Source: Escherichia phage UPWr_E1. From it: a stretch of DNA of 64,000 nt. Made by a program: the position numbers and the translations under genes. The notes beneath the pieces are model-generated. The model saw nothing but the letters and a program-made list of their open reading frames with translations. It did not search any database and was not told the origin of the DNA. Shown here in pieces: positions 4,004 to 30,526 of this stretch (position 1 is its first letter; each line of letters begins with the position of its first letter). The stretch lies in the sequence record PP418985.1. One strand, written 5' to 3'.

Positions 4004-4528
4004 GTGAATATGTCAGAATTTAATTCTTGTGCTGGTCTGGTTAACGAAAAAGATATTAACGCGGCTATCGCCGCATATCATCACGCGATTGCAGAAGGTA
4101 AAGATCCGTTTCAGGTGATGCTAGAAATGCAAACTGGTTTGCAGGTTGCATTATCCGAAAAATTTGATTGGGTCCCAAATCCAACTAAGCTAGAGACTTG
4201 CGGTGAAATGCTGGATTGGATGCAACGGATGGATGACGCTATCGCAGACGAAACACGAGAGCTTTACACATCGCTGGGTGGAATGTCCAATGGTAAAGAT
4301 GCAAGTGCAATCTGGAAAATGTGGAAAAAGAACCACGGGGAAGCGCGAGCGCGTAAATTCTCTGAACTGTCACCAGAAGATCAGCTTGAAGTGAAATTTG
4401 AATTTGTGGACGCGATCCACTTCATTCTGTCAAAGATGATCCCGCTGGGTATTGACGCTCAAGAACTCTTTATTCTGTACTATCTGAAAAATGCTGAAAA
4501 CTTCGCCCGTCAAGAACGCGGCTACTAA
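4004..4528 (+). CDS. Putative all-alpha NTP pyrophosphatase (dCTPase gp56-like)
   Basis: 174 aa (T4 gp56 is about 171); acidic helix motifs ADETRELYTSLG and EFVDAIHFIL resemble MazG/dCTPase-type pyrophosphatases; position matches T4 gene 56 region. Confidence 0.45.
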   Translation: MNMSEFNSCAGLVNEKDINAAIAAYHHAIAEGKDPFQVMLEMQTGLQVALSEKFDWVPNPTKLETCGEMLDWMQRMDDAIADETRELYTSLGGMSNGKDASAIWKMWKKNHGEARARKFSELSPEDQLEVKFEFVDAIHFILSKMIPLGIDAQELFILYYLKNAENFARQERGY

Positions 4529-4564
4529 AAATTAGTTGACCCTACTCTATAATGGTTTTATTAT

Positions 4565-4596
4565 GCCTCCCGTCGAAAGATTGGAGGCTTTTTTAT
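4565..4596 (+). terminator. Rho-independent terminator
   Basis: GCCTCC...GGAGGC hairpin followed by TTTTTTATT. Confidence 0.7.
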
Positions 4597-4597
4597 T

Positions 4598-5101
4598 ATG
4601 CAATTTACACCAGAAGAACTTAACATCATTGATGAAGTGATGAACTCTAAAGAAAATATCGATATGTCGATCCTTAATGGATTGATTGAAAAGACTGAAC
4701 GGTTAGTGCATCATGAAGCCTTGTATCGCGGTGTGAGCAAAAGAGAAGGCCGTAAGCTGGATACCTTAATTGTAGGTGATTCTTTCGTTGTAGAGCGTCC
4801 TATGAGCTTTACGCCACTGCAATCAACAGCAGAGGACTTTGCAACCGATGTTTATGCAACAGGAAAGATTATTGCAATAAAACCTACCAAGCCTTGCATG
4901 AATTATTACGAACATGCTATTGATCGAGTGGTGTCTAAAGAGTATGACAATCCGACTACTCGACTGTCTTTGTATGCTATGTTGGCGGATGAGCGCGAGT
5001 GCATATACAAGACAGGGACGACCATGATCCTTGATGAGATCGAGGAAGTTTACGCATGTAACGGCGATCTGATAGAGATTTACAAATTTTCTTTAATTTA
5101 A
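4598..5101 (+). CDS. Hypothetical protein, candidate Mod-like ADP-ribosyltransferase
   Basis: 167 aa; ordered R (LYRGV), S-x-T (MSFTP) and E-x-E (DERECIY) motifs like R-S-E ADP-ribosyltransferases; sits where T4 carries modA/modB. Confidence 0.35.
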   Translation: MQFTPEELNIIDEVMNSKENIDMSILNGLIEKTERLVHHEALYRGVSKREGRKLDTLIVGDSFVVERPMSFTPLQSTAEDFATDVYATGKIIAIKPTKPCMNYYEHAIDRVVSKEYDNPTTRLSLYAMLADERECIYKTGTTMILDEIEEVYACNGDLIEIYKFSLI

Positions 5102-5162
5102 GTGTTGACAGCACAAACCAGATAGACAATAATACACACATACCAACTAAGGAGAATCAATT

Positions 5163-5918
5163 ATGAAACTGTTTGCTTTTAAATCTAACGAAGAATTGGC
5201 GCTGGTTGTTTTCCGTCTGAACTCTATCATGGCTGGCGCTTCTCGTCGTAACAAAGACTTCTCTATGAGCTTAGTCACTGTGCGTAACATCTATCGCCAG
5301 ACTCATTGCGCATATTCCGGTGAGGCTTTCGGTGAAGGTGATGACGGACTCTCCTTAGAGCGCATTGATTGCAATCTGGGATATGTTGATGGCAATGTAA
5401 TTCCGGTTAAACTGAAATACAATTCTTTCCGTGGTAATCATACTATCGAATCTCTTAAAGAGATCCAGGAACTAGGAACTAACGGTAAACTTTCTGATGA
5501 TGAAATTGCCCTACGTGCGAAGTACATCGAGTGGATCGAACTTAACGAGAATCGCATCAAAAATCAGGAAATGGCAATCGAAGAAAAGAAATTAGCAATC
5601 GAGCGCCACAAAAAGCACAACGAACCGGAGAAAGCAGATGCAGCCGAGCGAGCGATTAAAAATACTCTCTTCCGTATGGAAGAACGTTATCAGAAAATTG
5701 CAGATCTCAAGCAAGCCCTTAGCGAAATCAACAAGAAAGAGGAAAAACTTAAGGCTATTGCAAACAATACCGAAATCGTGCTAAAATATACCAGCGTTTT
5801 GATTGAATCTCTTTCTAAGTATGAGAACTTAACGCCAGCACAAAAAGAACGCGTGAAATACGGGCTTCCGATTGATGCGTCGTGGATTGAATTGATGAAA
5901 GCGAAGGTAGGTTTATAA
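5163..5918 (+). CDS. Hypothetical protein with degenerate HNH-like N-terminal region and coiled-coil C-terminal half
   Basis: 251 aa; CAYSG...ERIDCNLGY...GN resembles an inactivated HNH core; positional equivalent of T4 srd (about 250 aa). Confidence 0.3.
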   Translation: MKLFAFKSNEELALVVFRLNSIMAGASRRNKDFSMSLVTVRNIYRQTHCAYSGEAFGEGDDGLSLERIDCNLGYVDGNVIPVKLKYNSFRGNHTIESLKEIQELGTNGKLSDDEIALRAKYIEWIELNENRIKNQEMAIEEKKLAIERHKKHNEPEKADAAERAIKNTLFRMEERYQKIADLKQALSEINKKEEKLKAIANNTEIVLKYTSVLIESLSKYENLTPAQKERVKYGLPIDASWIELMKAKVGL

Positions 5919-19604: not shown

Positions 19605-20372
19605 ATGAAAAACCTGATCGCTGCTATCATTCTTTCTGCTACTGCTTTCGGTGCTAATGCTGCGTCCTTCGATTGCGCTAAAGCTACTACCAAATCAGAG
19701 AAGTTTATTTGCGCGAATGAGTCTATCTCCGAACTGGATTCTAAACTTCATGAAGTATATGTTAAAGCTGTTAAGATTGATCCGTCTCTGAAACAAGAGC
19801 AACGCAACTGGAATAAAACTGTTCGTGATACAATGATCAATATCGGGCAGATTCAGCCACTGGAGGCTGTATATAACGCTCAAATTCAAAACTTGATGAA
19901 TGTATTGCCTAAAGAAGAAACCTCGTCAGAAAGAGAATCAGAGGCTTCTGTGAAGGTTGAAGAACAACAACCGAAACAGGAAGAAAAAGTTGTAGTTCAA
20001 CCGAAGAAAGAAAAGAAACCACAAACCAGCGAGTTTACCTTGCAATGTGAATCTCACTTTAAATGGAAAAATATCGACGGAGCAAACACTAAGCCGAAAG
20101 CACAGCCATTTTATAAAGAGTACAATCCAGGTGAATTGACTCTGAAAGTAAAAGATGGTCAGATTATCCATTTTACATACATCGACAATAATGATGTGCA
20201 TAAGGCAAACACAAAACGAGTAGTTGATGACAACGGAATGATCGTTTTTAGCGGCTGGAAAGAAAATAAAAAGTATTATGTGTGGCGTGAACAGGATAGC
20301 GATATCATTCGCTTAGAAGTCCGCGAACAAGGATACTCTAAAATCTATGTTGACCAGTACGGGTGCAGATAA
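19605..20372 (+). CDS. Secreted protein with DUF1311/LprI-like (lysozyme-inhibitor-like) N-terminal domain
   Basis: Signal peptide MKNLIAAIILSATAFGANA; C..A.T..E..IC...D..L...Y ... Q.NW...RD pattern of DUF1311; Lys/Glu-rich linker. Confidence 0.5.
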   Translation: MKNLIAAIILSATAFGANAASFDCAKATTKSEKFICANESISELDSKLHEVYVKAVKIDPSLKQEQRNWNKTVRDTMINIGQIQPLEAVYNAQIQNLMNVLPKEETSSERESEASVKVEEQQPKQEEKVVVQPKKEKKPQTSEFTLQCESHFKWKNIDGANTKPKAQPFYKEYNPGELTLKVKDGQIIHFTYIDNNDVHKANTKRVVDDNGMIVFSGWKENKKYYVWREQDSDIIRLEVREQGYSKIYVDQYGCR

Positions 20373-21609: not shown

Positions 21610-21942
21610 ATGTTTAACTATGACAAATATGAATCATGGAAAGCGACCGAATTGAAAGAGGCAGCGCGGTTAATCACACCGCGTCTTTATCCGGTGTTGT
21701 TTAGCGCCGATAAAGTAACAAGGGAAGTAAACGAGGCGCTATCGGTTTTAGGTTATCTGATCGATAAAGTAGAGAAAACATCGGTATTCACAAATAGCGT
21801 AGAATATACCCGGTATAGAGTGTTTTTAGATTCCTTGCTCGTTGTTATTAAAGCACTAAATGATCATAACTACACCATGAACATGACGAAAATAATCGAC
21901 GAAGCAAGAATTATGACAGAGAATATTTTCGGTAAATTTTGA
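21610..21942 (+). CDS. Hypothetical protein (paralog of 22051-22380)
   Basis: C-terminal IDEARIMTENIFGKF matches VKDARKLAENVYGKF of the next gene. Confidence 0.45.
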   Translation: MFNYDKYESWKATELKEAARLITPRLYPVLFSADKVTREVNEALSVLGYLIDKVEKTSVFTNSVEYTRYRVFLDSLLVVIKALNDHNYTMNMTKIIDEARIMTENIFGKF

Positions 21943-22050: not shown

Positions 22051-22380
22051 GTGATTATGATCGAGTTTGAAATTGACAACTTTCACGAAAAAGCAGAAGA
22101 CCTAACCAAAATTTTGATTAGTCGAGGTGCATATAATACGAAAGATATTATAAAAGAAGTTAATGTAGCGATGGACGCGATCCGAAAGGAATTTAAACAT
22201 ATTTCAGCGATTGGAGAAAATGGTCATCTTGAAGATGTTGAGCTGGTAGCACTGCGACGCTATTACTTCTTTGTTGATTGCATCATTGATCTAGCTAAAA
22301 ATTATAGCCATTACATGAAAGATATTGTAAAAGATGCACGTAAGCTGGCAGAGAATGTTTACGGGAAGTTTCCAGAATGA
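22051..22380 (+). CDS. Hypothetical protein (paralog of 21610-21942)
   Basis: Shared C-terminal motif. Confidence 0.45.
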   Translation: MIMIEFEIDNFHEKAEDLTKILISRGAYNTKDIIKEVNVAMDAIRKEFKHISAIGENGHLEDVELVALRRYYFFVDCIIDLAKNYSHYMKDIVKDARKLAENVYGKFPE

Positions 22381-22625
22381 AATTAGAACAAGCGATTGTA
22401 TACTTTGAGATGGGCTATGATATTGCTCGTGTAGAGTGGGAAGATGGTGATTTTGTCCGATTGATTGATCTTCCAGAAACAGCTATTGCACTGGTCAAAG
22501 TAGAAAACGGCATACAACGAAATTATGCGTTCTCTGACGAAGACAAACAAGCCGATGACTGGTACGCTACCTGTTTTCATCATACAGCGTCAAAATGTGA
22601 TTCAGGGGCTTCTATGCGCCAATAA
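22377..22625 (+). CDS. Hypothetical protein
   Basis: 82-aa ORF followed by bidirectional terminator. Confidence 0.4.
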   Translation: MKLEQAIVYFEMGYDIARVEWEDGDFVRLIDLPETAIALVKVENGIQRNYAFSDEDKQADDWYATCFHHTASKCDSGASMRQ

Positions 22626-22632
22626 AAAAGAA

Positions 22633-22657
22633 GGGGAGGCCGAAAGGCTTCCCCTTT
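22633..22657. terminator. Bidirectional terminator between convergent early genes and holin
   Basis: AGGGGAGGC-CGAAAG-GCTTCCCCT with A-run before and T-run after. Confidence 0.65.
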
Positions 22658-22660
22658 AAG

Positions 22661-23317
22661 TTATCTAATCCTTCCGAGGATTCTGGCAGATTGATTGCAA
22701 AGAGTATCTAAATTCTCAATGTCAATATCTGGTTTATTCTTCCATGCAATGGCGATACTACCAGAATAGACATTATCGAGATTGAATATAGGACAAGAAT
22801 ACATGAATCCTATATCGATATTCTCTAATTTTTTCTCCCTCGACGGAATATACTGGAAATCTTTATCGGTAAAATAGGATTTACCTAAAAGATGCCTACG
22901 ATATTCTTCGCTCGTTTTATTGATAGGGAAGCCGCCTAAATTCTTTTCATCAATTGTATGTGGCAATTTTCCTTCGTATGCCACCAAATCAACGAAATAG
23001 TTTAGGTTTTTTGGACGAAAGCTAAAAACAGCAGAAAAATCGGCATCTGCCGACACATGAACTATCTGTAACTGCTCCTGTGCTGCATTATCAAAATTGC
23101 GGTCTTTTTCTACCTGGAGAACGTGAGCATAAGTCTCATAACGAGTTTCTTTATAAAGCGCAAACAACTCGTTTTTGCTATAAACGACAAATGCTAATAT
23201 AGACAACACAACGGCAGCAAAAACACGAAGTACGAGCAACTCCGTGCTTTTAGTTGTGAAAATAGCGCGCAGGACATTTGAGATAGCAAAGTCTTTCTCT
23301 TTTTCAGAAACTTGCAT
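22661..23317 (-). CDS. t: Holin (T4 gpt-type)
   Basis: 218 aa, same length as T4 holin T; single N-terminal TMD; blocks EQLQIVH, ADFSAVFSFRPKNLNYFVD, AYEGKLP, MYSCPIFNLDN, ARILGR. Confidence 0.85.
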   Translation of the reverse strand: MQVSEKEKDFAISNVLRAIFTTKSTELLVLRVFAAVVLSILAFVVYSKNELFALYKETRYETYAHVLQVEKDRNFDNAAQEQLQIVHVSADADFSAVFSFRPKNLNYFVDLVAYEGKLPHTIDEKNLGGFPINKTSEEYRRHLLGKSYFTDKDFQYIPSREKKLENIDIGFMYSCPIFNLDNVYSGSIAIAWKNKPDIDIENLDTLCNQSARILGRIR

Positions 23318-23351
23318 ATAATGCCCTAAAAATAACTATGACAGTGTACCA

Positions 23352-23591
23352 TTATTTAGGTACTTGACTATCACCCGTTTTATTCTGCTCGTTGCTATCT
23401 TCCGTCTGTTCTTTATTAAACTCCTTATAAAGTTCTTCCACAAAACGGTCATCAATTGGCGTATTGGTATATGCCGCAAGACGACGAGCGCAATAGAAGA
23501 AAATTTTAGTGAGCATCTTTTCACTAATTAACTTTGATAATAATTTCATTCCGAAACTAGACAAAGCACCAATGACGATATTATAGACCAT
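23352..23591 (-). CDS. Hypothetical small protein
   Basis: 79 aa, hydrophobic/amphipathic N-terminus, acidic C-terminus; between the paralog triplet and holin. Confidence 0.35.
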   Translation of the reverse strand: MVYNIVIGALSSFGMKLLSKLISEKMLTKIFFYCARRLAAYTNTPIDDRFVEELYKEFNKEQTEDSNEQNKTGDSQVPK

Positions 23592-23642
23592 AGCCGTTTC
23601 TCCTTAGTAGTTCCCTTCCGTGGGAGCTTTCCTTAATTCTTT

Positions 23643-23945
23643 TTAGCGGTTGCTCAAACGTCTATAGCGAAGATGGGAAATACCCCTGTTTGTAGTTACC
23701 GTGATCGTTACTCCCTGCGGCACAATACAAGAATGGATCTGTCCCCAATCATGACCCTTATGACTCCCAGACACACAAAAGCCATGCAAAAGCAATTCAG
23801 AGTCACCGCCACCACCACCAGAAGAATGAGCACCAAATGAAACCGTACCGAAAGCGTCTGGTGTCCATCCATTAGGGATATCAAACCAACCCTGATTCGC
23901 TTTACCAGCTTTATTACCTAAAACACCATCTACCCACCATCCCAT
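23643..23945 (-). CDS. Gly/His-rich small protein, paralog 3 of tandem triplet
   Basis: 100 aa; shares GWFxIPNGW, Gly-rich centre and C-terminal aromatic/basic tail with the next two ORFs. Confidence 0.55.
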   Translation of the reverse strand: MGWWVDGVLGNKAGKANQGWFDIPNGWTPDAFGTVSFGAHSSGGGGGDSELLLHGFCVSGSHKGHDWGQIHSCIVPQGVTITVTTNRGISHLRYRRLSNR

Positions 23946-24244
23946 TAATGCATTCTCCTAAATTGGAAGTGGTTTAAACTTCCTTTGCCAATACTAAAGC
24001 TGACAGTAGCGCCAGCACCAACTAAAGAACTAGCTCCCCAACTTCCTGCACTACCGGCGTGATGACCAGATTCAAGAGTACCGTTTACATATAGCTCTGC
24101 ATCTAGGTCATTACCAGCGGCTTCGGCATGAACAGATACAATACCGCATGAATCTGCCACCCAACCATTAGGAATACCAAACCATCCACCATTAGCATAA
24201 ATGCTAATAGCATTTGCCATTCTTCCAGCAATCCACCCAGCCAT
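23945..24244 (-). CDS. Gly/His-rich small protein, paralog 2 of tandem triplet
   Basis: 99 aa; ANGGWFGIPNGWVADSCGIVS; start overlaps upstream stop. Confidence 0.55.
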   Translation of the reverse strand: MAGWIAGRMANAISIYANGGWFGIPNGWVADSCGIVSVHAEAAGNDLDAELYVNGTLESGHHAGSAGSWGASSLVGAGATVSFSIGKGSLNHFQFRRMH

Positions 24245-24246
24245 AA

Positions 24247-24543
24247 TTAAAACTCCATAAATTTAAAGTATTCAATCCCACCGACACCACCATGACCAAA
24301 TGTAACAGTACATCCAGCAGGAACAAACGCATTAACGGTAAATCCCCAATCCCCGCCACCACGACGACGAGCGGCAACTACACCATCAACGGAAATATGC
24401 ATATCACCCCAACCATCATTAGCATTATGCCGCAAAACAGCAACCCCTGCACGACTGGGTACATATCCATTTGGAATATCAAAAACATGCCATTTTAAAG
24501 CATCAATTTTAGTATTAATTTCACTACCGACCCAATATCCCAT
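24247..24543 (-). CDS. Gly/His-rich small protein, paralog 1 of tandem triplet
   Basis: 98 aa; WHVFDIPNGYVPSRAGVAV; immediately downstream of gene 37. Confidence 0.55.
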   Translation of the reverse strand: MGYWVGSEINTKIDALKWHVFDIPNGYVPSRAGVAVLRHNANDGWGDMHISVDGVVAARRRGGGDWGFTVNAFVPAGCTVTFGHGGVGGIEYFKFMEF

Positions 24544-24581
24544 TTAAGATCCTTAGCGGGGAGAAATCCCCGCTATTTTAA

Positions 24582-27500
24582 TTAACCAAATAATTTAGCC
24601 TCAATTGCAGCAAGACGTTCACGAAGAATTTTATTTTCTTCTTTAAGAAGTGCAATTTCTTCTGTGTGTTCGTTGATTGCAGCAGTAATTAAACCAATAA
24701 CACCGTTATAGTTCAAACGAAGAAGGTTTTCACCAACCGGATCGCCTTCAACTAGTTCCGGTAAAATGGCTTGAACTTCTTGAGCAATCAAACCAGCATT
24801 AGGCTCCCATCGTTCGCTACCGTCTTCATTTACTCCGCGTTTTTGAAGATACATATAACCGTTAATTTTTGAAAGTGTCTGTGATGCATTTTCAAATTTA
24901 ACTAAATCCTTCTTCACGCGAATATCAGAACGGATATAAATGTCACGAACATATGTCGAATAGTTGTCATTCGCCTGAATCAAATGACCATGAGAAATAA
25001 TAGCTTTGTCAACTTCGGTCCATAAAGCAGCACCAACACTCCATAATCCAGGATGTTCTTGATGGAAGATACCCCATGAGGCAATATGTTGTCCGTTTGC
25101 CATCAGGTTAATACGTCCATCACCACCATGCGCTAAACCAGTGTCATTATCACCAATAGCAATTGATGCGCCTCCCCAAACCGGAACCGTACCAACACCA
25201 ATTCTAGGAGTTTGAATCAAAGGGCAATAAAACTGTCCGTTAGCATGAAACTCAAACACACCTTGTGGATGGTTAGCCCCTGGTGTAGCTTCCGCAGATC
25301 CAACACGAATAACAGCTTGTCCCCATGTTCCGGGAGTACGACGTAAGCCAAAGTCAGCCTTAGTAGAATATCCTTGACCTGTGATCTGGCTATGTCCTTT
25401 AATAAGTGGATAATAGCTATCTTGTCCAACACTACCCTGATCAATAAAGATAGGTGCTTCTTCGCGCCACTGTCCGTCCCATGAACCGGAATGATTAGCA
25501 ACCCACTGTGTAGCGTTTATATAGATGCGGTCTTTGCTAATACTAACATTATTAAAATTTTGTGGCGCAAGTGCTATCTCGCCATTATTCGTGATGTGTA
25601 TACCAGCCTGAGTTGCATAGCTATAAAATGCTAGCGAATTATCCGCACCACCTTTACCAATATACCAGTTATTATTTCCGCCTATATCACCGCGAATATG
25701 CAAAGAATTGCTAGCGGTAGTCGATAGTACAATCGCATCACCCGGACGTTTAATGGTTAGTCGACCGTCGGATTCAACTTCACCAAAGAACTTAGTTTTA
25801 ATTGCACCCGTCGCTAAAGTACGTTCAGTGGAAAAATGAGCGCCTTTGCTATCTTCTAACTGAATAATGTTATCACGAGCATTATTGCTATCACCCCAAT
25901 GATTAAACCGGAAATAATCGCGTGATTGCTTACCACCCGCTTCAAACGTCAGCGTACCTTTACTTAAATTAACATCACCACCAAAGGTAGCAGCAAGCGA
26001 ACTACTTTTTAATCTTAAAATATCAGCACCGCTAGTTCCACCTAAAGTAACATCACCAGTTTTGAATTGATAACGGAAAGGTCTATTTGTGTTAAAGTTT
26101 CCATCTTGATCATTTTCGTCGGTGGAAAGAATATAAAGACTTTCACCATCATTACGGAAAATTGTACCAAAATTACCGCCATACATTTTAAATGCATTGG
26201 ATGAACGGAATTTAACTTCTGTGTTAAAAGTTGTAGTTGATTTAAACGTTGTTGAACTACCGAAGTTAACAACACCATTAAAATCTTGTTGTGCTGTCCA
26301 TGTGTGGCGACCATCTTCCACAACAATACGGCGAACGGTATTAGTTCTATTTCCCGGATTACCAGCTACACGAACGACAAAATAACGGTAGTTAGCTTGT
26401 GACACAGTACCACGCCAAACCTGAACGGTGCGACCTGTTCCGGTATGCTCACTAGGTCCAACGGATAACATAATTAAGTTACCGTCAATCGTTCCCCAAT
26501 CCATATTTGCTGGCATGTTCTTGACTTTATTCAGCGGTACGCTATACATCCCGCCAGGAACAAAATCAAATGTTTGCCAGTCTAGCTCTGTTAATTGAGC
26601 TTTAACACCACCCATACCCAAAGTAATTGGCAGAGAATAAGATGTATATACTTCGTTCCATGTACCCCAAACGCCATTAGTATATGCGCGCTCAAAAATA
26701 CGTCCGCGAGTAGTTGCACCTGTTCCGGCAGTAGTAAATTTTTGGAAAATAGCACCACCAGAAGCACGCTGTTTAACTTCCAGCAAACCAACAATAACAG
26801 GCGGCAAACCTTCACCTGTAGGGCAGTTAATAACGGCATCAGTGCCTAAAATATTATATAAACCTGGAGTTTTAAAATCATTCAGGTTTCCGTCATAGAA
26901 AGTCGCTGGTGTGACATTACCTACTTGTTGCCACGGTCCCCATTTAGGCGCAGAAGCATCCCACGCAGCAGCAAGACAACGAGTATAAACAACACCAAAT
27001 CTGGTCGTATATCTCTGTGTGCGAGAATATTTTCCACCTTCATATACTTCTAAAAGTCCTTGAGCGGACGATCCTTCTTCTGGGAAATTTCTGTCAAAGG
27101 TAGCAATGGTATTTGAACTATTCCGCCACAAACCAAAATGTTCCGCGCCACCTAGATCATTAAGATCAATTGTGGTTGACAATGGACGAGTACCGGATTG
27201 AATATTTCTCCACACACCCCACGGACCATCAACACCATTCCATTTAGCAGACAAAGAACGAATATAAACATTTCCGTATCTAGTTGTATATCTCTGAGTT
27301 CCAGCAAATTGCCCAGCCGTAAACACTTCCAATACACCAACAGCATTTTCTTCTGGGAATTTATTTGCAGGTTGCGCATTTGTTGAAGTAGATTTAGACC
27401 AAATGCCAGTAAATTTACCAGTCGGTCCATAATTATCTAAATTTGCATCAGTTGGCAATTCGCCGCGAAAGTGTCCCAAAGTAATTACATTATTGCTGTC

Positions 27501-27626
27501 ATCTTTTGTATATAGTTCTCGATCCGCTAGGTTAATAGCAAGTTCACCCGGAGTTAGAATATTCGCATCCGGCTTGCGACCTGCCGTACTTGTTCTTTTA
27601 AATTGGATTCTCTGTAAATCTGCCAT
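24582..27626 (-). CDS. 37: Long tail fibre distal subunit (gp37-like) with C-terminal intramolecular chaperone domain
   Basis: 1014 aa; N-terminus MADLQRIQFKRTSTAGRKP...GELAINL matches T4 gp37; C-terminal SDIRVKKDL...NYNGVIGLITAAI...coiled coil is the S74-type autoproteolytic chaperone signature. Confidence 0.85.
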   Translation of the reverse strand: MADLQRIQFKRTSTAGRKPDANILTPGELAINLADRELYTKDDSNNVITLGHFRGELPTDANLDNYGPTGKFTGIWSKSTSTNAQPANKFPEENAVGVLEVFTAGQFAGTQRYTTRYGNVYIRSLSAKWNGVDGPWGVWRNIQSGTRPLSTTIDLNDLGGAEHFGLWRNSSNTIATFDRNFPEEGSSAQGLLEVYEGGKYSRTQRYTTRFGVVYTRCLAAAWDASAPKWGPWQQVGNVTPATFYDGNLNDFKTPGLYNILGTDAVINCPTGEGLPPVIVGLLEVKQRASGGAIFQKFTTAGTGATTRGRIFERAYTNGVWGTWNEVYTSYSLPITLGMGGVKAQLTELDWQTFDFVPGGMYSVPLNKVKNMPANMDWGTIDGNLIMLSVGPSEHTGTGRTVQVWRGTVSQANYRYFVVRVAGNPGNRTNTVRRIVVEDGRHTWTAQQDFNGVVNFGSSTTFKSTTTFNTEVKFRSSNAFKMYGGNFGTIFRNDGESLYILSTDENDQDGNFNTNRPFRYQFKTGDVTLGGTSGADILRLKSSSLAATFGGDVNLSKGTLTFEAGGKQSRDYFRFNHWGDSNNARDNIIQLEDSKGAHFSTERTLATGAIKTKFFGEVESDGRLTIKRPGDAIVLSTTASNSLHIRGDIGGNNNWYIGKGGADNSLAFYSYATQAGIHITNNGEIALAPQNFNNVSISKDRIYINATQWVANHSGSWDGQWREEAPIFIDQGSVGQDSYYPLIKGHSQITGQGYSTKADFGLRRTPGTWGQAVIRVGSAEATPGANHPQGVFEFHANGQFYCPLIQTPRIGVGTVPVWGGASIAIGDNDTGLAHGGDGRINLMANGQHIASWGIFHQEHPGLWSVGAALWTEVDKAIISHGHLIQANDNYSTYVRDIYIRSDIRVKKDLVKFENASQTLSKINGYMYLQKRGVNEDGSERWEPNAGLIAQEVQAILPELVEGDPVGENLLRLNYNGVIGLITAAINEHTEEIALLKEENKILRERLAAIEAKLFG

Positions 27627-27694
27627 TTTATAAAATCCTTAACGGTTATTAGAATAATATTATTTAGAAAAGCGGGGATAATCCCCCGCTAGAA

Positions 27695-29185
27695 TTAGAA
27701 AGTACCAAAATCAATTACCGCATTAAGCGGAACAGCGCCAACATCATCAGGAGTTGGTTTGTGTCCTTCGTGGTATAATTCAAATGTATCTGTGTCCTGA
27801 GTATTGTTTCGGGATTTAACGAAAATAATTTTAGAATCATGTGTGATGCCTAGTTTCTCGTGCGCTTTAATATCACTAACACGATGAATCATTGCTGTGC
27901 CATCTAAGCTATTAAGTCCAGCGTAGCAATTGTCACCATTATAGTTAGCTTTTGCTGTACGAACGCCGTTTGCAGCAGGAACTGTCAACGCACCTGTCAT
28001 GGTATCGCCAGTCACATTAACATAGCGAGCATCAGCCAATTTACGGTGATCTACATAGTTCCATGCGGTCCATGATTCATTAGAACAAGAACGCCAGCAC
28101 ATCGGATGATCAATAGATTCAGGATAATATACCTGAACAATTCGACGAGTACCGACCGCATCTTCTGGGCGATATACCATCAAAACGCCGTTATAATAGC
28201 TATCAGACGGTTTATTAGTACCTGATCCAGCATTTTCCACACGATAGATACCGCGATTAATAAGAGTGTTCCAATCAACGTTTCCAATGATTGTTGGATT
28301 TGCTACCATTGATTTTTTCTCAAAGTAGCTCAAACGAACCAATTCATTCGGACCAGCAGGATCGTTTGTCGCCAACATTCTAGGCGCTTGCAAGTTACCT
28401 TCCATAATATCACCAGCACGTTTAACCTGTGCATCATTGGTGACATTACCTAGTCCAACATCGGCTTTAGTTGGTTTATTGTTGGTGTGATAAAAACGAC
28501 CTTCTTTGCCATTAACAAAAATGGTAGGCTCATCTTTGCTACGGAATACCAACGTATCAAGAACGTTACCATAATAGATCTTAGTCGCATCAAAATTAAT
28601 TAAATCACGTCCCCTTGCAATTAATTTCGAATCAACCGATAGTTTAACAGTGACAGTGTTTAAATTATATGTTCCTGTGAGAGTATCACCGCGACGAGAC
28701 ACCAAATCTAAATCATTATTCGTCGGCTTATTAACAGGGCTATAGACGCGTTGACCAGTGTCTTTAATGGTTGTCCCTTCGATGGTCCCTTTAGTTTTAA
28801 AATCACCTGTGGTAGTGTCAATATAAGCCATGATAACATCATCACGAGCATTAACAAAGCCGATGGATTTCCACGAATGCAAACCCCAACTTACACCATC
28901 AAAGTTAGCAGCATCACTCTTGCCTTTAAAGATCCCGTTCTTTTTGGTTTCTCCACCGGATGCGCTACCTACGCTTAAACCTTCCTCAAAATGGACCAGT
29001 TTCTGAAATGTACCACCTTCGGTTGCACTGACGGAATCAGAATCTTCCGCCGTCGGCTTGTCAAACGCAGTATAGATTTTATGACCTTTATAGAAAAGCT
29101 GGTCCCCCGCTGGCTGGATCGTCAAGTTTCCTTGCGTCCAAATGGGAGATCCGCCTACAGTAGATCCATGTTTCAAATCTGCCAT
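27695..29185 (-). CDS. 36: Long tail fibre distal small subunit (gp36-like)
   Basis: 496 aa; N-terminus MADLKHGSTVGGSPIWTQGN...PAGD matches T4 gp36; TATAAATA upstream. Confidence 0.75.
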   Translation of the reverse strand: MADLKHGSTVGGSPIWTQGNLTIQPAGDQLFYKGHKIYTAFDKPTAEDSDSVSATEGGTFQKLVHFEEGLSVGSASGGETKKNGIFKGKSDAANFDGVSWGLHSWKSIGFVNARDDVIMAYIDTTTGDFKTKGTIEGTTIKDTGQRVYSPVNKPTNNDLDLVSRRGDTLTGTYNLNTVTVKLSVDSKLIARGRDLINFDATKIYYGNVLDTLVFRSKDEPTIFVNGKEGRFYHTNNKPTKADVGLGNVTNDAQVKRAGDIMEGNLQAPRMLATNDPAGPNELVRLSYFEKKSMVANPTIIGNVDWNTLINRGIYRVENAGSGTNKPSDSYYNGVLMVYRPEDAVGTRRIVQVYYPESIDHPMCWRSCSNESWTAWNYVDHRKLADARYVNVTGDTMTGALTVPAANGVRTAKANYNGDNCYAGLNSLDGTAMIHRVSDIKAHEKLGITHDSKIIFVKSRNNTQDTDTFELYHEGHKPTPDDVGAVPLNAVIDFGTF

Positions 29186-29218
29186 AAAGTAACCTCAAAA
29201 ATTAGTTATAGTTCCGAG

Positions 29219-29226
29219 TATTTATA
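29219..29226 (-). promoter_or_regulatory. T4-type late promoter (TATAAATA) for gene 36
   Basis: Exact TATAAATA on the minus strand about 35 nt upstream of the gene 36 start codon. Confidence 0.55.
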
Positions 29227-29342
29227 GAATGTTAACAAAATATCGCTTTGCGACGTGCCGTAGGCACTGATTATTTTTTAACCGAAACAAATTTTCTATA
29301 TTCTAAAGATCTTTCTTCGTTTTGGTTATGTTTTAACCAACT

Positions 29343-29386: not shown

Positions 29387-30526
29387 TTAATCAACATCAA
29401 ACTCTTTAAAGTTGTTGGATGTGATGTGTTTATTATCTCTAGGCAGCTTAAGAAGACTCATAACAGGGTTATCGAAATTGCCGTTATCCTGAATGTGAGT
29501 TGTTCTAATACCGTTAACACCAAAGGAAGTAGGTCCGGTAGTTTTGACGACACCGCTTATAGGAGTAATCAGGATGTTTCTAACCTTAACAACACCTTCA
29601 TTGGAGTTGGTTGGATATCTGATACAACCAGTTACTACACTATCGACACCTTCCGGTACAGTATAAACAGCTTCGAATTTTTCCCATTGATCTTTCTGGC
29701 TGGCATTGTAGCGAACGCCAGTTTTATATTGTCCCTCCATAAAATAGTTATGGAAGAATCGCGCTGTTACGTTGGCTGCTGCTGCGGCACTATCACGGAA
29801 CAATTCAAAAGATATTGATAGTTTGTCACCTGCCTTGATGTTAAAATCTTCAAGTGGTGCGCTGATCTCATCATGAGGCCATTGTATTAGCTCGAAATGT
29901 TCGGCATCTTCGCTAACATACTCGACCGGATAATCTAAAAATCGTTGTGGTGTTCCTGTAATTGCAAGATCATCTATAGTATCATAGACTTTCTCAATCT
30001 GTATAGATGAATCTTGCCCTTCTCCGTGAGTTGCTTGCATACCTTCACAAACAATTTTACCCATTTTAGTAGAGTAAATTGCTGCATACGATACACGAGG
30101 CATTTGCTGTAATAGAATATAATTAGGGAAAGACACAGATCCTAACTTAGCAAATATACCATCACTTACAACATCTGCAAATAGTTCTCCATGTGATGCC
30201 ATTGCGATAATATAATCCCCTTTCAGTAAAGAAAGATAATCACGCATTGCCAATACAGCACCACGACCATAGAATACCTTTTCTTCGTGTAATTGTCCAG
30301 TTGGAGTAAGAACTTTAAAGTTTAGGCCAGTCTCATAGCCAGTCCCGACGATCTCCACTCCATTAAATCTAATCCTTGCTGGTTTGGAAGAATCCGCATT
30401 AGATCCGCGCACTTCCAGCTTATACATCACAGAGTTGTTTTCTGAAATGCTTGTAAATGTCGCGGAGTCTTCGTCGAAATGCGCAAACTTAATTCCAGTA
30501 TTGCGTAATTCTATCTCTTGTGTCAT
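29387..30526 (-). CDS. 35: Long tail fibre hinge protein (gp35-like)
   Basis: 379 aa (T4 gp35 is 372); sits between genes 34 and 36. Confidence 0.65.
   Translation of the reverse strand: MTQEIELRNTGIKFAHFDEDSATFTSISENNSVMYKLEVRGSNADSSKPARIRFNGVEIVGTGYETGLNFKVLTPTGQLHEEKVFYGRGAVLAMRDYLSLLKGDYIIAMASHGELFADVVSDGIFAKLGSVSFPNYILLQQMPRVSYAAIYSTKMGKIVCEGMQATHGEGQDSSIQIEKVYDTIDDLAITGTPQRFLDYPVEYVSEDAEHFELIQWPHDEISAPLEDFNIKAGDKLSISFELFRDSAAAAANVTARFFHNYFMEGQYKTGVRYNASQKDQWEKFEAVYTVPEGVDSVVTGCIRYPTNSNEGVVKVRNILITPISGVVKTTGPTSFGVNGIRTTHIQDNGNFDNPVMSLLKLPRDNKHITSNNFKEFDVD

Follow-up and report, generated by a model that had tools for sequence, protein, structure and literature searches.

A T2/S16-type gp37 fiber with a predicted self-cleaving S74 chaperone and a conserved triplet of small genes in the gp38 slot of Escherichia phage UPWr_E1

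We analyzed a stretch of 64,000 nucleotides from Escherichia phage UPWr_E1 (sequence record PP418985.1; the whole 64-kb stretch is hereafter called the window), with a focus on gene 37, which encodes the distal subunit of the long tail fiber, and on three small genes, here named A, B, and C, that follow it. The region matches Krischvirus phages (RB49-like Straboviridae), and the closest record is Escherichia phage vB_EcoM_G2248 (G2248). From its sequence, gp37 is almost certainly a T2/S16-type distal fiber subunit with an S74 chaperone, predicted to be self-cleaving, in its last 115 residues. In T2/S16-type phages the exposed tip is capped by one gp38 adhesin molecule; in the window, A, B, and C lie in the gp38 slot, between gp37 and the holin. 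The best joint explanation that we can offer combines the S74 chaperone with a receptor-binding cap made of A, B, and C on a platform ending in DIYIR, and we judge its chances of being right to be about even. The cap in this explanation is suggested by gene context, evolution, and predicted fold. The features of gp37 are as follows.

24582..27626, minus strand: gene 37, distal half-fiber subunit, 1014 amino acids (aa) (phrog_1699 'long tail fiber protein distal subunit', E-value (E) 2.5e-186)
26073..26252, minus strand: Gp34_trimer-like trimerization domain, residues 459-518 (Pfam PF21446, E 1.3e-12; matches the solved T4 gp34 fragments 5nxf and 4uxe)
24930..25178, minus strand: S16-like distal tip, residues 817-899, with last strand ...RDIYIR (aligns with 6F45_A residues 23-88)
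24912..24929, minus strand: predicted autocleavage motif S900-D-I-R-V-K905, expected cut R899/S900 (aligns with the S16 site DLNVS^SDRRIKK)
24585..24929, minus strand: intramolecular chaperone of the Peptidase_S74 type, residues 900-1014, with a C-terminal helical region

A first-pass annotation of the window had proposed a C-terminal S74-type chaperone on gp37 and an S74 profile search as a check. That search was positive: residues 900-959 match Pfam PF13884 (Peptidase_S74) with E 2.4e-11 and 44.2 bits, twice the gathering score of 22. The best solved relative of the whole gp37 is 6F45_A, a distal fragment of gp37 from Salmonella phage S16 (E 7e-40, residues 817-1003). When only the last 121 residues were used in a PDB sequence search, 6F45_A was matched with E 5.4e-29, and a weak match to the MYRF autoprocessing domain 7dc3 (E 0.035) fits membership of the same S74 family. 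T4 gp37, included as a negative control in the same profile search, gave no S74 match, in line with the contrast to T4 drawn in the annotation. By these sequence comparisons the S74 domain on gp37 is real, far beyond chance.

The C-terminal part of gp37 reads ...RDIYIR, SDIRVKKDL...AGLIAQEVQAILPELV...NYNGVIGLITAAI...EENKILRERLAAIEAKLFG, and the coordinates of the first-pass annotation, 24582-24944, correspond to residues 895-1014 plus the stop codon, with the Ser900 codon at 24927-24929. The catalytic motif S-D-x-R-x-K named in the annotation is intact; it is conserved, as is the AGLIAQEV..LPELV block further downstream. The S74 domain makes up the last 115 of the 1014 residues, and the Gp34_trimer trimerization domain lies upstream of it. 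Autocleavage is predicted to occur at R899/S900, and the fragment from Ser900 to the end would have 115 aa and 12.8 kDa, close to the approximately 120 residues and 13 kDa first estimated for the releasable part; the remaining predicted mature gp37 has 899 aa and 98.2 kDa. The S74 chaperone would help three gp37 chains to fold and trimerize into the fiber tip. After folding, Ser900, with Lys905 as base, would cut the R899-S900 bond so that three 12.8-kDa fragments are released, leaving a mature gp37 of 98 kDa that ends in ...DIYIR. That the S74 domain is a decayed relic, which is not cleaved and stays on the mature fiber, appears extremely improbable given the conservation of the SDxRxK motif and of the AGLIAQEV..LPELV block, the match at E 5e-29 to S16, for which cleavage has been reported, and the retention of the motif in nearly all related fibers. 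Two metagenomic fibers, L025 (3-395) and L026 (3-1517), are nearly identical but have the motif SDRRLK and SDLNLK, respectively; in L026 the conserved Arg is gone and the Ser and Lys are still there.

PMC7917993, citing the structure paper on S16, describes the last 113 residues of S16 gp37 as an intramolecular chaperone with autocleavage at DLNVS^SDRRIKK. It states that this cleavage exposes a hydrophobic tip, to which gp38 docks through conserved tryptophan 'prongs', and that in the related fPS phages the strand DVYIR is predicted to be a docking platform or triangle for gp38. Since S16 gp37 has the same chaperone and the gp37 tip in the window ends in DIYIR^SDIRVKK, an S74 domain at the end of a T-even-type gp37 belongs to the T2/S16 arrangement already known and adds little by itself. 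The idea that it is a different assembly solution grafted onto a T4-like locus is thus superseded, as the match to 6F45_A indicates. Nor is the chaperone tied to the loss of gp38, since the sister Krischvirus G5211 has a T2-type gp38 together with an S74 domain on gp37 (E 1.3e-11). The window shares with S16 and T2 a homologous tip and chaperone, the same motif, a chaperone of similar length (115 aa here and 113 aa in S16), the slot from gp36 to the holin, and the type of docking strand, which is DIYIR here, DVYIR in the fPS phages and G5211, and DLNVS in S16. It differs from them in having no gp38 with glycine-rich motifs and instead three proteins of about 100 aa that are predicted to be β-sandwiches.

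With T5 pb1 and the K1F endosialidase, both named in the first-pass annotation, the window chaperone has in common the Pfam family, the Ser/Lys motif, and the position at the C-terminus of a trimeric fiber. This similarity is at the family level, and neither protein surfaced in the PDB sequence search with the window chaperone. We know of no small trailing genes of the A/B/C family with either T5 pb1 or the K1F endosialidase. The likeness to T4 lies in the locus layout 34-35-36-37-slot-t, in the N-terminus of gp37 (58% identity to T4 gp37 over the first 55 aa), and in the gp57A homologue that G2248, the closest relative, possesses. In T4, Collar and fiber-repeat domains are found in gp37 and an S74 domain is not, whereas the window gp37 lacks Collar and Phage_fiber domains, and a T4-type gp38 chaperone was not found in the window. 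The window gp37 is 93% identical to that of G2248 and 84% identical to that of G5211, the latter over residues 1-802 only.

The absence of gp38, also proposed at first, is borne out by tblastn searches of the window with T4 gp38 of the chaperone type (no match, best E 0.76) and with the T2/T6-type gp38 adhesin (no match, best E 1.8). The latter query was rebuilt from G5211 (L002, MK327947), where a frameshift after residue ~32 splits the T2-type gp38 at 4050-4849 into two overlapping coding sequences of 37 and 245 aa; read as one, it has a normal N-terminus, MAVVGVPGWIGSSAANETGQRWMSQAAGQLRLGVPCWMSQFAGRS. Literature mentions Krischvirus gp38 genes that are sited far from gp37, and for this reason the whole G2248 genome was taken into account: tblastn with both gp38 types found none in ~98% of it, the remainder being the stretch covered by the window. 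Large genes about 50 kb away in G2248 are not gp38; they encode Ig-repeat proteins that look Hoc-like by sequence alone. The G2248 record has three genes with Ig-like repeats (243, 846, and 409 aa) at 104364-108993, between a capsid vertex gene and uvsW, and the two larger ones have the C-terminal motif RYVHP(I/L)PWRRTSF in common.

The reliance of T4 on gp38 and gp57A had also been set against the window. This contrast stands for gp38, which was not found, and probably fails for gp57A, of which a homologue is retained in G2248. The homologue lies beside gene 1, syntenic with T4 57A, and matches phrog_1002 (GP57) with E 5e-26 and PF17594 with 27.5 bits (cut-off 27). A tblastn search with T4 gp57A found no match in the window and also missed the homologue in G2248 that the profile searches found. 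As the syntenic position moreover falls outside the window, the negative tblastn result there says little. Judging from sequence, this phage probably still uses gp57A.

The position of gp38 itself was overlooked in the first-pass annotation: three conserved small genes occupy it exactly, separated from gp37 by a hairpin.

24554..24575, between the gp37 stop and gene A: G+C-rich hairpin, with a T-run on the plus strand only
24247..24543, minus strand: small gene A, 98 aa, first of three paralogues
23945..24244, minus strand: small gene B, 99 aa (hidden Markov model (HMM) E 8.4e-40)
23643..23945, minus strand: small gene C, 100 aa (HMM E 1.3e-42)

A, B, and C are paralogues with 25-30% identity and the common motif W(F/Y)DIPNGW. 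B starts 2 nucleotides past the stop of A, and the start of C overlaps the stop of B; this tight translational packing suggests that the three proteins are made in equal amounts. Their N-termini are MGYWVGS (A), MAGWIAG (B), and MGWWVDG (C), and the N-terminus of T2-type gp38 contains three Trp repeats that resemble these starts (PGWIGSS, QRWMSQA, and PCWMSQF). One Trp motif at the start of each of A, B, and C, compared to three in a single gp38, is a suggestive parallel in sequence. Searches of Pfam, NCBIfam, and PADLOC gave no family match for A, B, or C, including the Tfa and other known fiber chaperone families, and no match to Pfam C1q or TNF. The sole PHROG match of the triplet is that of protein A to phrog_18834, of unknown function, and is weak (E 5e-4). 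A PDB profile search yielded nothing but spurious matches, such as those to the designed 'Pizza' propellers, which involve only the repeated short motif PNGxxxDxxG.

Between gene 36 and the holin, the consensus of a T4-type late promoter is present at one site only.

29219..29226, minus strand: T4-type late promoter consensus TATAAATA, upstream of gene 36

The hairpin was rejected as an intrinsic terminator for these genes because the T-run is missing on the gene strand. With the sole late-promoter consensus upstream of gene 36 and no T-run at the hairpin in the direction of the genes, A, B, and C are probably late genes that are co-transcribed with gp37, and the sequence suggests that gp36, gp37, A, B, and C form one late transcription unit. 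The hairpin may lower the expression of the triplet relative to the fiber, or stabilize the mRNA. A hairpin followed by a Shine-Dalgarno sequence before gene A is present in all enterobacterial loci, hairpins of unrelated sequence are found at the same place in the divergent loci L025, L028, and L031, and L030 and L033 have no hairpin between the fiber stop and gene A. The loci with a hairpin are the window, L005-L009, L025, L028, L031, and L035.

Structure prediction with AlphaFold2 (AF2) on A, from an alignment of 27 sequences, gave a seven-stranded sandwich with a short N-terminal helix of lower confidence (mean predicted local distance difference test score (pLDDT) of 84). A Foldseek search with this model against viral models retrieved phage tail-fiber proteins and phage C1q-domain proteins. 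The modeled β-sandwich is most like C1q/TNF knobs, with GOLD domains and carbohydrate-binding modules scoring equally. In a prediction on the concatenated A+B+C sequence the three domains fold alike (predicted TM score (pTM) of 0.38, with alignment depth on the C part only). The models predict that A, B, and C each begin with a short helix, followed by a knob-like β-sandwich of about 80 residues, a fold that resembles the knobs at fiber ends and not known fiber chaperones. The globular head of C1q is a heterotrimeric jelly-roll knob made of three paralogous chains from three genes. There is no relation between A/B/C and C1q/TNF at the level of sequence, and the A/B/C domain has ~80 residues compared to ~130.

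The triplet lies within a stretch in which the window is unlike the gp38-carrying G5211.

23652..25244, minus strand: block unlike G5211, comprising gp37 from about codon 795 to the end and A, B, and C

In blastn comparisons, G5211 matches the window at 29299..25245 (88% identity) and at 23651..22600 (95%), with nothing in between. As similarity stops at 25245 and resumes at 23651, the approximately 1.6 kb at 23652-25244 differ as one block. The block ends near the stop codon of C, and G5211 has its T2-type gp38 at the same place. In the prophages L005 and L007, nucleotide identity to the window is 88-89% and confined to the final ~20 chaperone codons, the hairpin, and the triplet; it ends at 23642, again near the stop codon of C. 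For prophage L006 an identity of 81% reaches back to about codon 652 of gp37. The window, G2248, and prophage L006 have the S16-like tip segment (~88 aa), which is missing from G5211, G37-3, KFS-EC, and L005. The tip of G5211, which is paired with gp38, is, when the aligned tips are compared by eye, ~80% identical to that of KFS-EC, and also resembles those of L007 and L028. A prophage A protein (P0001) that is 95% identical to the A protein of the window accompanies three different fiber tips, which have in common only the last strand D[IV]YIR.

Searches of 50,697 phage records by tblastn with A and a remote C-type protein gave matches in three Krischvirus only (G2248, G37-3, and KFS-EC). When 1.84 billion representative proteins were scanned with an HMM, 19 matched, of which 15 are proteins of ~100 aa and the rest are repeat artifacts. 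The giant repetitive proteins (1118-3591 aa) in the HMM search are spurious, since they match only at PNGxxxDxxG, many times over. Scanning genome contigs with triplet profiles, with one genome per species, found no relative, because the family is too rare for such sampling. In all, ~30 loci were obtained, which represent four or more genomic backgrounds: Krischvirus phages, siphovirus-like prophages of E. coli and Salmonella, a T7-like contig, and other metagenomic contigs. Nine prophage contigs from IMG/VR and three further metagenomic lineages are among these loci. Beyond these loci, the triplet occurs in 14 of 5,426 complete E. coli genomes, where only the triplet itself was seen. In every locus with upstream sequence the triplet directly follows a fiber that ends in ...R^SDxRxK and a chaperone of 95-115 aa. 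In the T7-like contig it lies between a gp17-type fiber (Phage_T7_tail and S74) and an ORF (open reading frame) that resembles the T7 gp17.5 holin. In siphovirus-like prophages the fiber and triplet lie between two genes for major-tail-protein-like products (277 and 156 aa in the E. coli prophage L005, 3541-9432), and in L005 they are upstream of the genes for the tail assembly chaperone and tape measure, which is an unusual place for a fiber gene.

The order A-B-C is the same in all loci. In a neighbor-joining tree of six divergent triplets the proteins in position 1 form one clade, and those in positions 2 and 3 have nearest neighbors consistent with their position; the triplication is therefore old, with every copy retained. 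No locus with one, two, or four intact copies was found among those retrieved, and the only exceptions are degenerate, namely a frameshifted B in L016 and an A::C chimera in KFS-EC (L004, MH560358). The latter is a single ORF at 5001-5440 in which most of A is fused to the middle of C, followed by a frameshift, with the rest of C readable in another frame. Its sequence looks like a deletion by recombination between paralogues; either the triplet is naturally knocked out in this phage, or the record contains a sequencing error. These data bear on the idea that A, B, and C each form a homotrimeric knob and compete for tips, which would give three receptor specificities within one phage population. 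It is well established that C1q/TNF-type domains are commonly homotrimeric, alternative adhesins are known in phages, and KFS-EC retains mainly the A part. We nevertheless find this idea improbable, since variable copy number and lineage-specific duplications would then be expected, whereas intact loci hold one member of each ancient group in a fixed order, and since the tight translational packing suggests equal amounts.

In the explanation that we prefer, the late message that encodes gp37 would also yield equal amounts of A, B, and C, and one copy of each would combine to form a three-part knob. Release of the chaperone would free the hydrophobic ...DIYIR platform, on which this knob would be seated as a receptor-binding cap in place of gp38. 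Several observations weigh against it. KFS-EC, which was isolated on O157:H7, carries a broken triplet and appears viable; the intact triplet is therefore non-essential on at least one host, unless the record has sequencing errors. The occurrence of P0001 with three tips fits docking on the shared last strand and equally well no docking at all. Remote members of the family, e.g., those of L030 and L031, have not kept the N-terminal Trp. Finally, the concatenated A+B+C model, in which the arrangement of the domains is unreliable, failed to superpose on single-chain trimers of C1q or adiponectin.

A rival explanation, which takes the first-pass reading further, is a self-sufficient fiber: the chaperone would fold the S16-like gp37 tip and leave, the tip itself would bind the receptor, as in the L-shaped fiber of T5, and A, B, and C would be non-virion passengers of the cassette with another role, e.g., in assembly or regulation. 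The seeming viability of KFS-EC despite its broken triplet, the finding of an identical A protein with different tips, and the failure of AF2 to recover an A/B/C trimer all speak for this, as does the established knowledge that the S74 fibers of T5 pb1 and the K1F endosialidase need no separate cap. We consider a self-sufficient fiber somewhat unlikely, since the triplet sits precisely where the adhesin gene would be and stops where the differing block stops, and its strict linkage to S74 fibers in unrelated phage types is hard to square with a passenger. The predicted fold is moreover knob-like, with no match to a known fiber chaperone family, and the T2/S16-type tip of gp37 is described in PMC7917993 as highly hydrophobic and made for capping.

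Extending the cap reading beyond T4-like phages, we tentatively propose that a heterotrimeric, C1q-like knob of A, B, and C, together with the tip and the chaperone, forms a portable host-range cassette that lytic T4-like myoviruses, temperate siphovirus prophages, and T7-like podoviruses exchange, a possibility to which we give rather less than an even chance. The replacement of gp38 by the triplet on a T2/S16-type tip appears to be new, in contrast to the S74 part, which was already known; no description of the A/B/C triplet was found in the literature searched. At present, gp37 tips and gp38 adhesins are the basis on which receptors are predicted and host range is engineered in T-even-like phages. 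If the cap and cassette are real, three small proteins would make up a third type of tip, shared with prophages and podoviruses, which would be a blind spot of current models and a new module for swapping. A homotrimeric fiber would then have a heterotrimeric end, a rare case that would give another answer to the three-to-one symmetry problem, which gp38 solves with three tryptophan prongs.

The surroundings of the gene 37 locus are conserved in the closest relative, with 93% identity between the window and G2248 over 22600-27700 and 91-98% across the remainder. The genes on the minus strand follow the order 35, 36, 37, the three small ORFs, an ORF of 79 aa, and holin t.

29387..30526, minus strand: gene 35
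27695..29185, minus strand: gene 36, 496 aa (phrog_16472 and phrog_1425 'hinge connector of long tail fiber'; 38% identity to T4 gp36)
Minus strand, between small gene C and holin t: ORF of 79 aa (phrog_402)
22661..23317, minus strand: holin t, 218 aa, at the far border of the gp38 slot (Pfam Phage_holin_T, E 4.9e-61)

Further along in the window, two adjacent ORFs of ~110 aa on the strand opposite to the fiber genes (21610-21942 and 22051-22380, plus strand) look like paralogues, as both end in ...(A/T)ENI/VxGKF and have the pattern LxxxxxxxNxxMxxI in common. An ORF of 255 aa at 19605-20372 (plus strand) has a signal-like N-terminus (MKNLIAAIILSATAFGANA) and a linker rich in lysine and glutamate, and is kept in G2248 and G5211, where it is annotated as a hypothetical protein (RB49p262-like).

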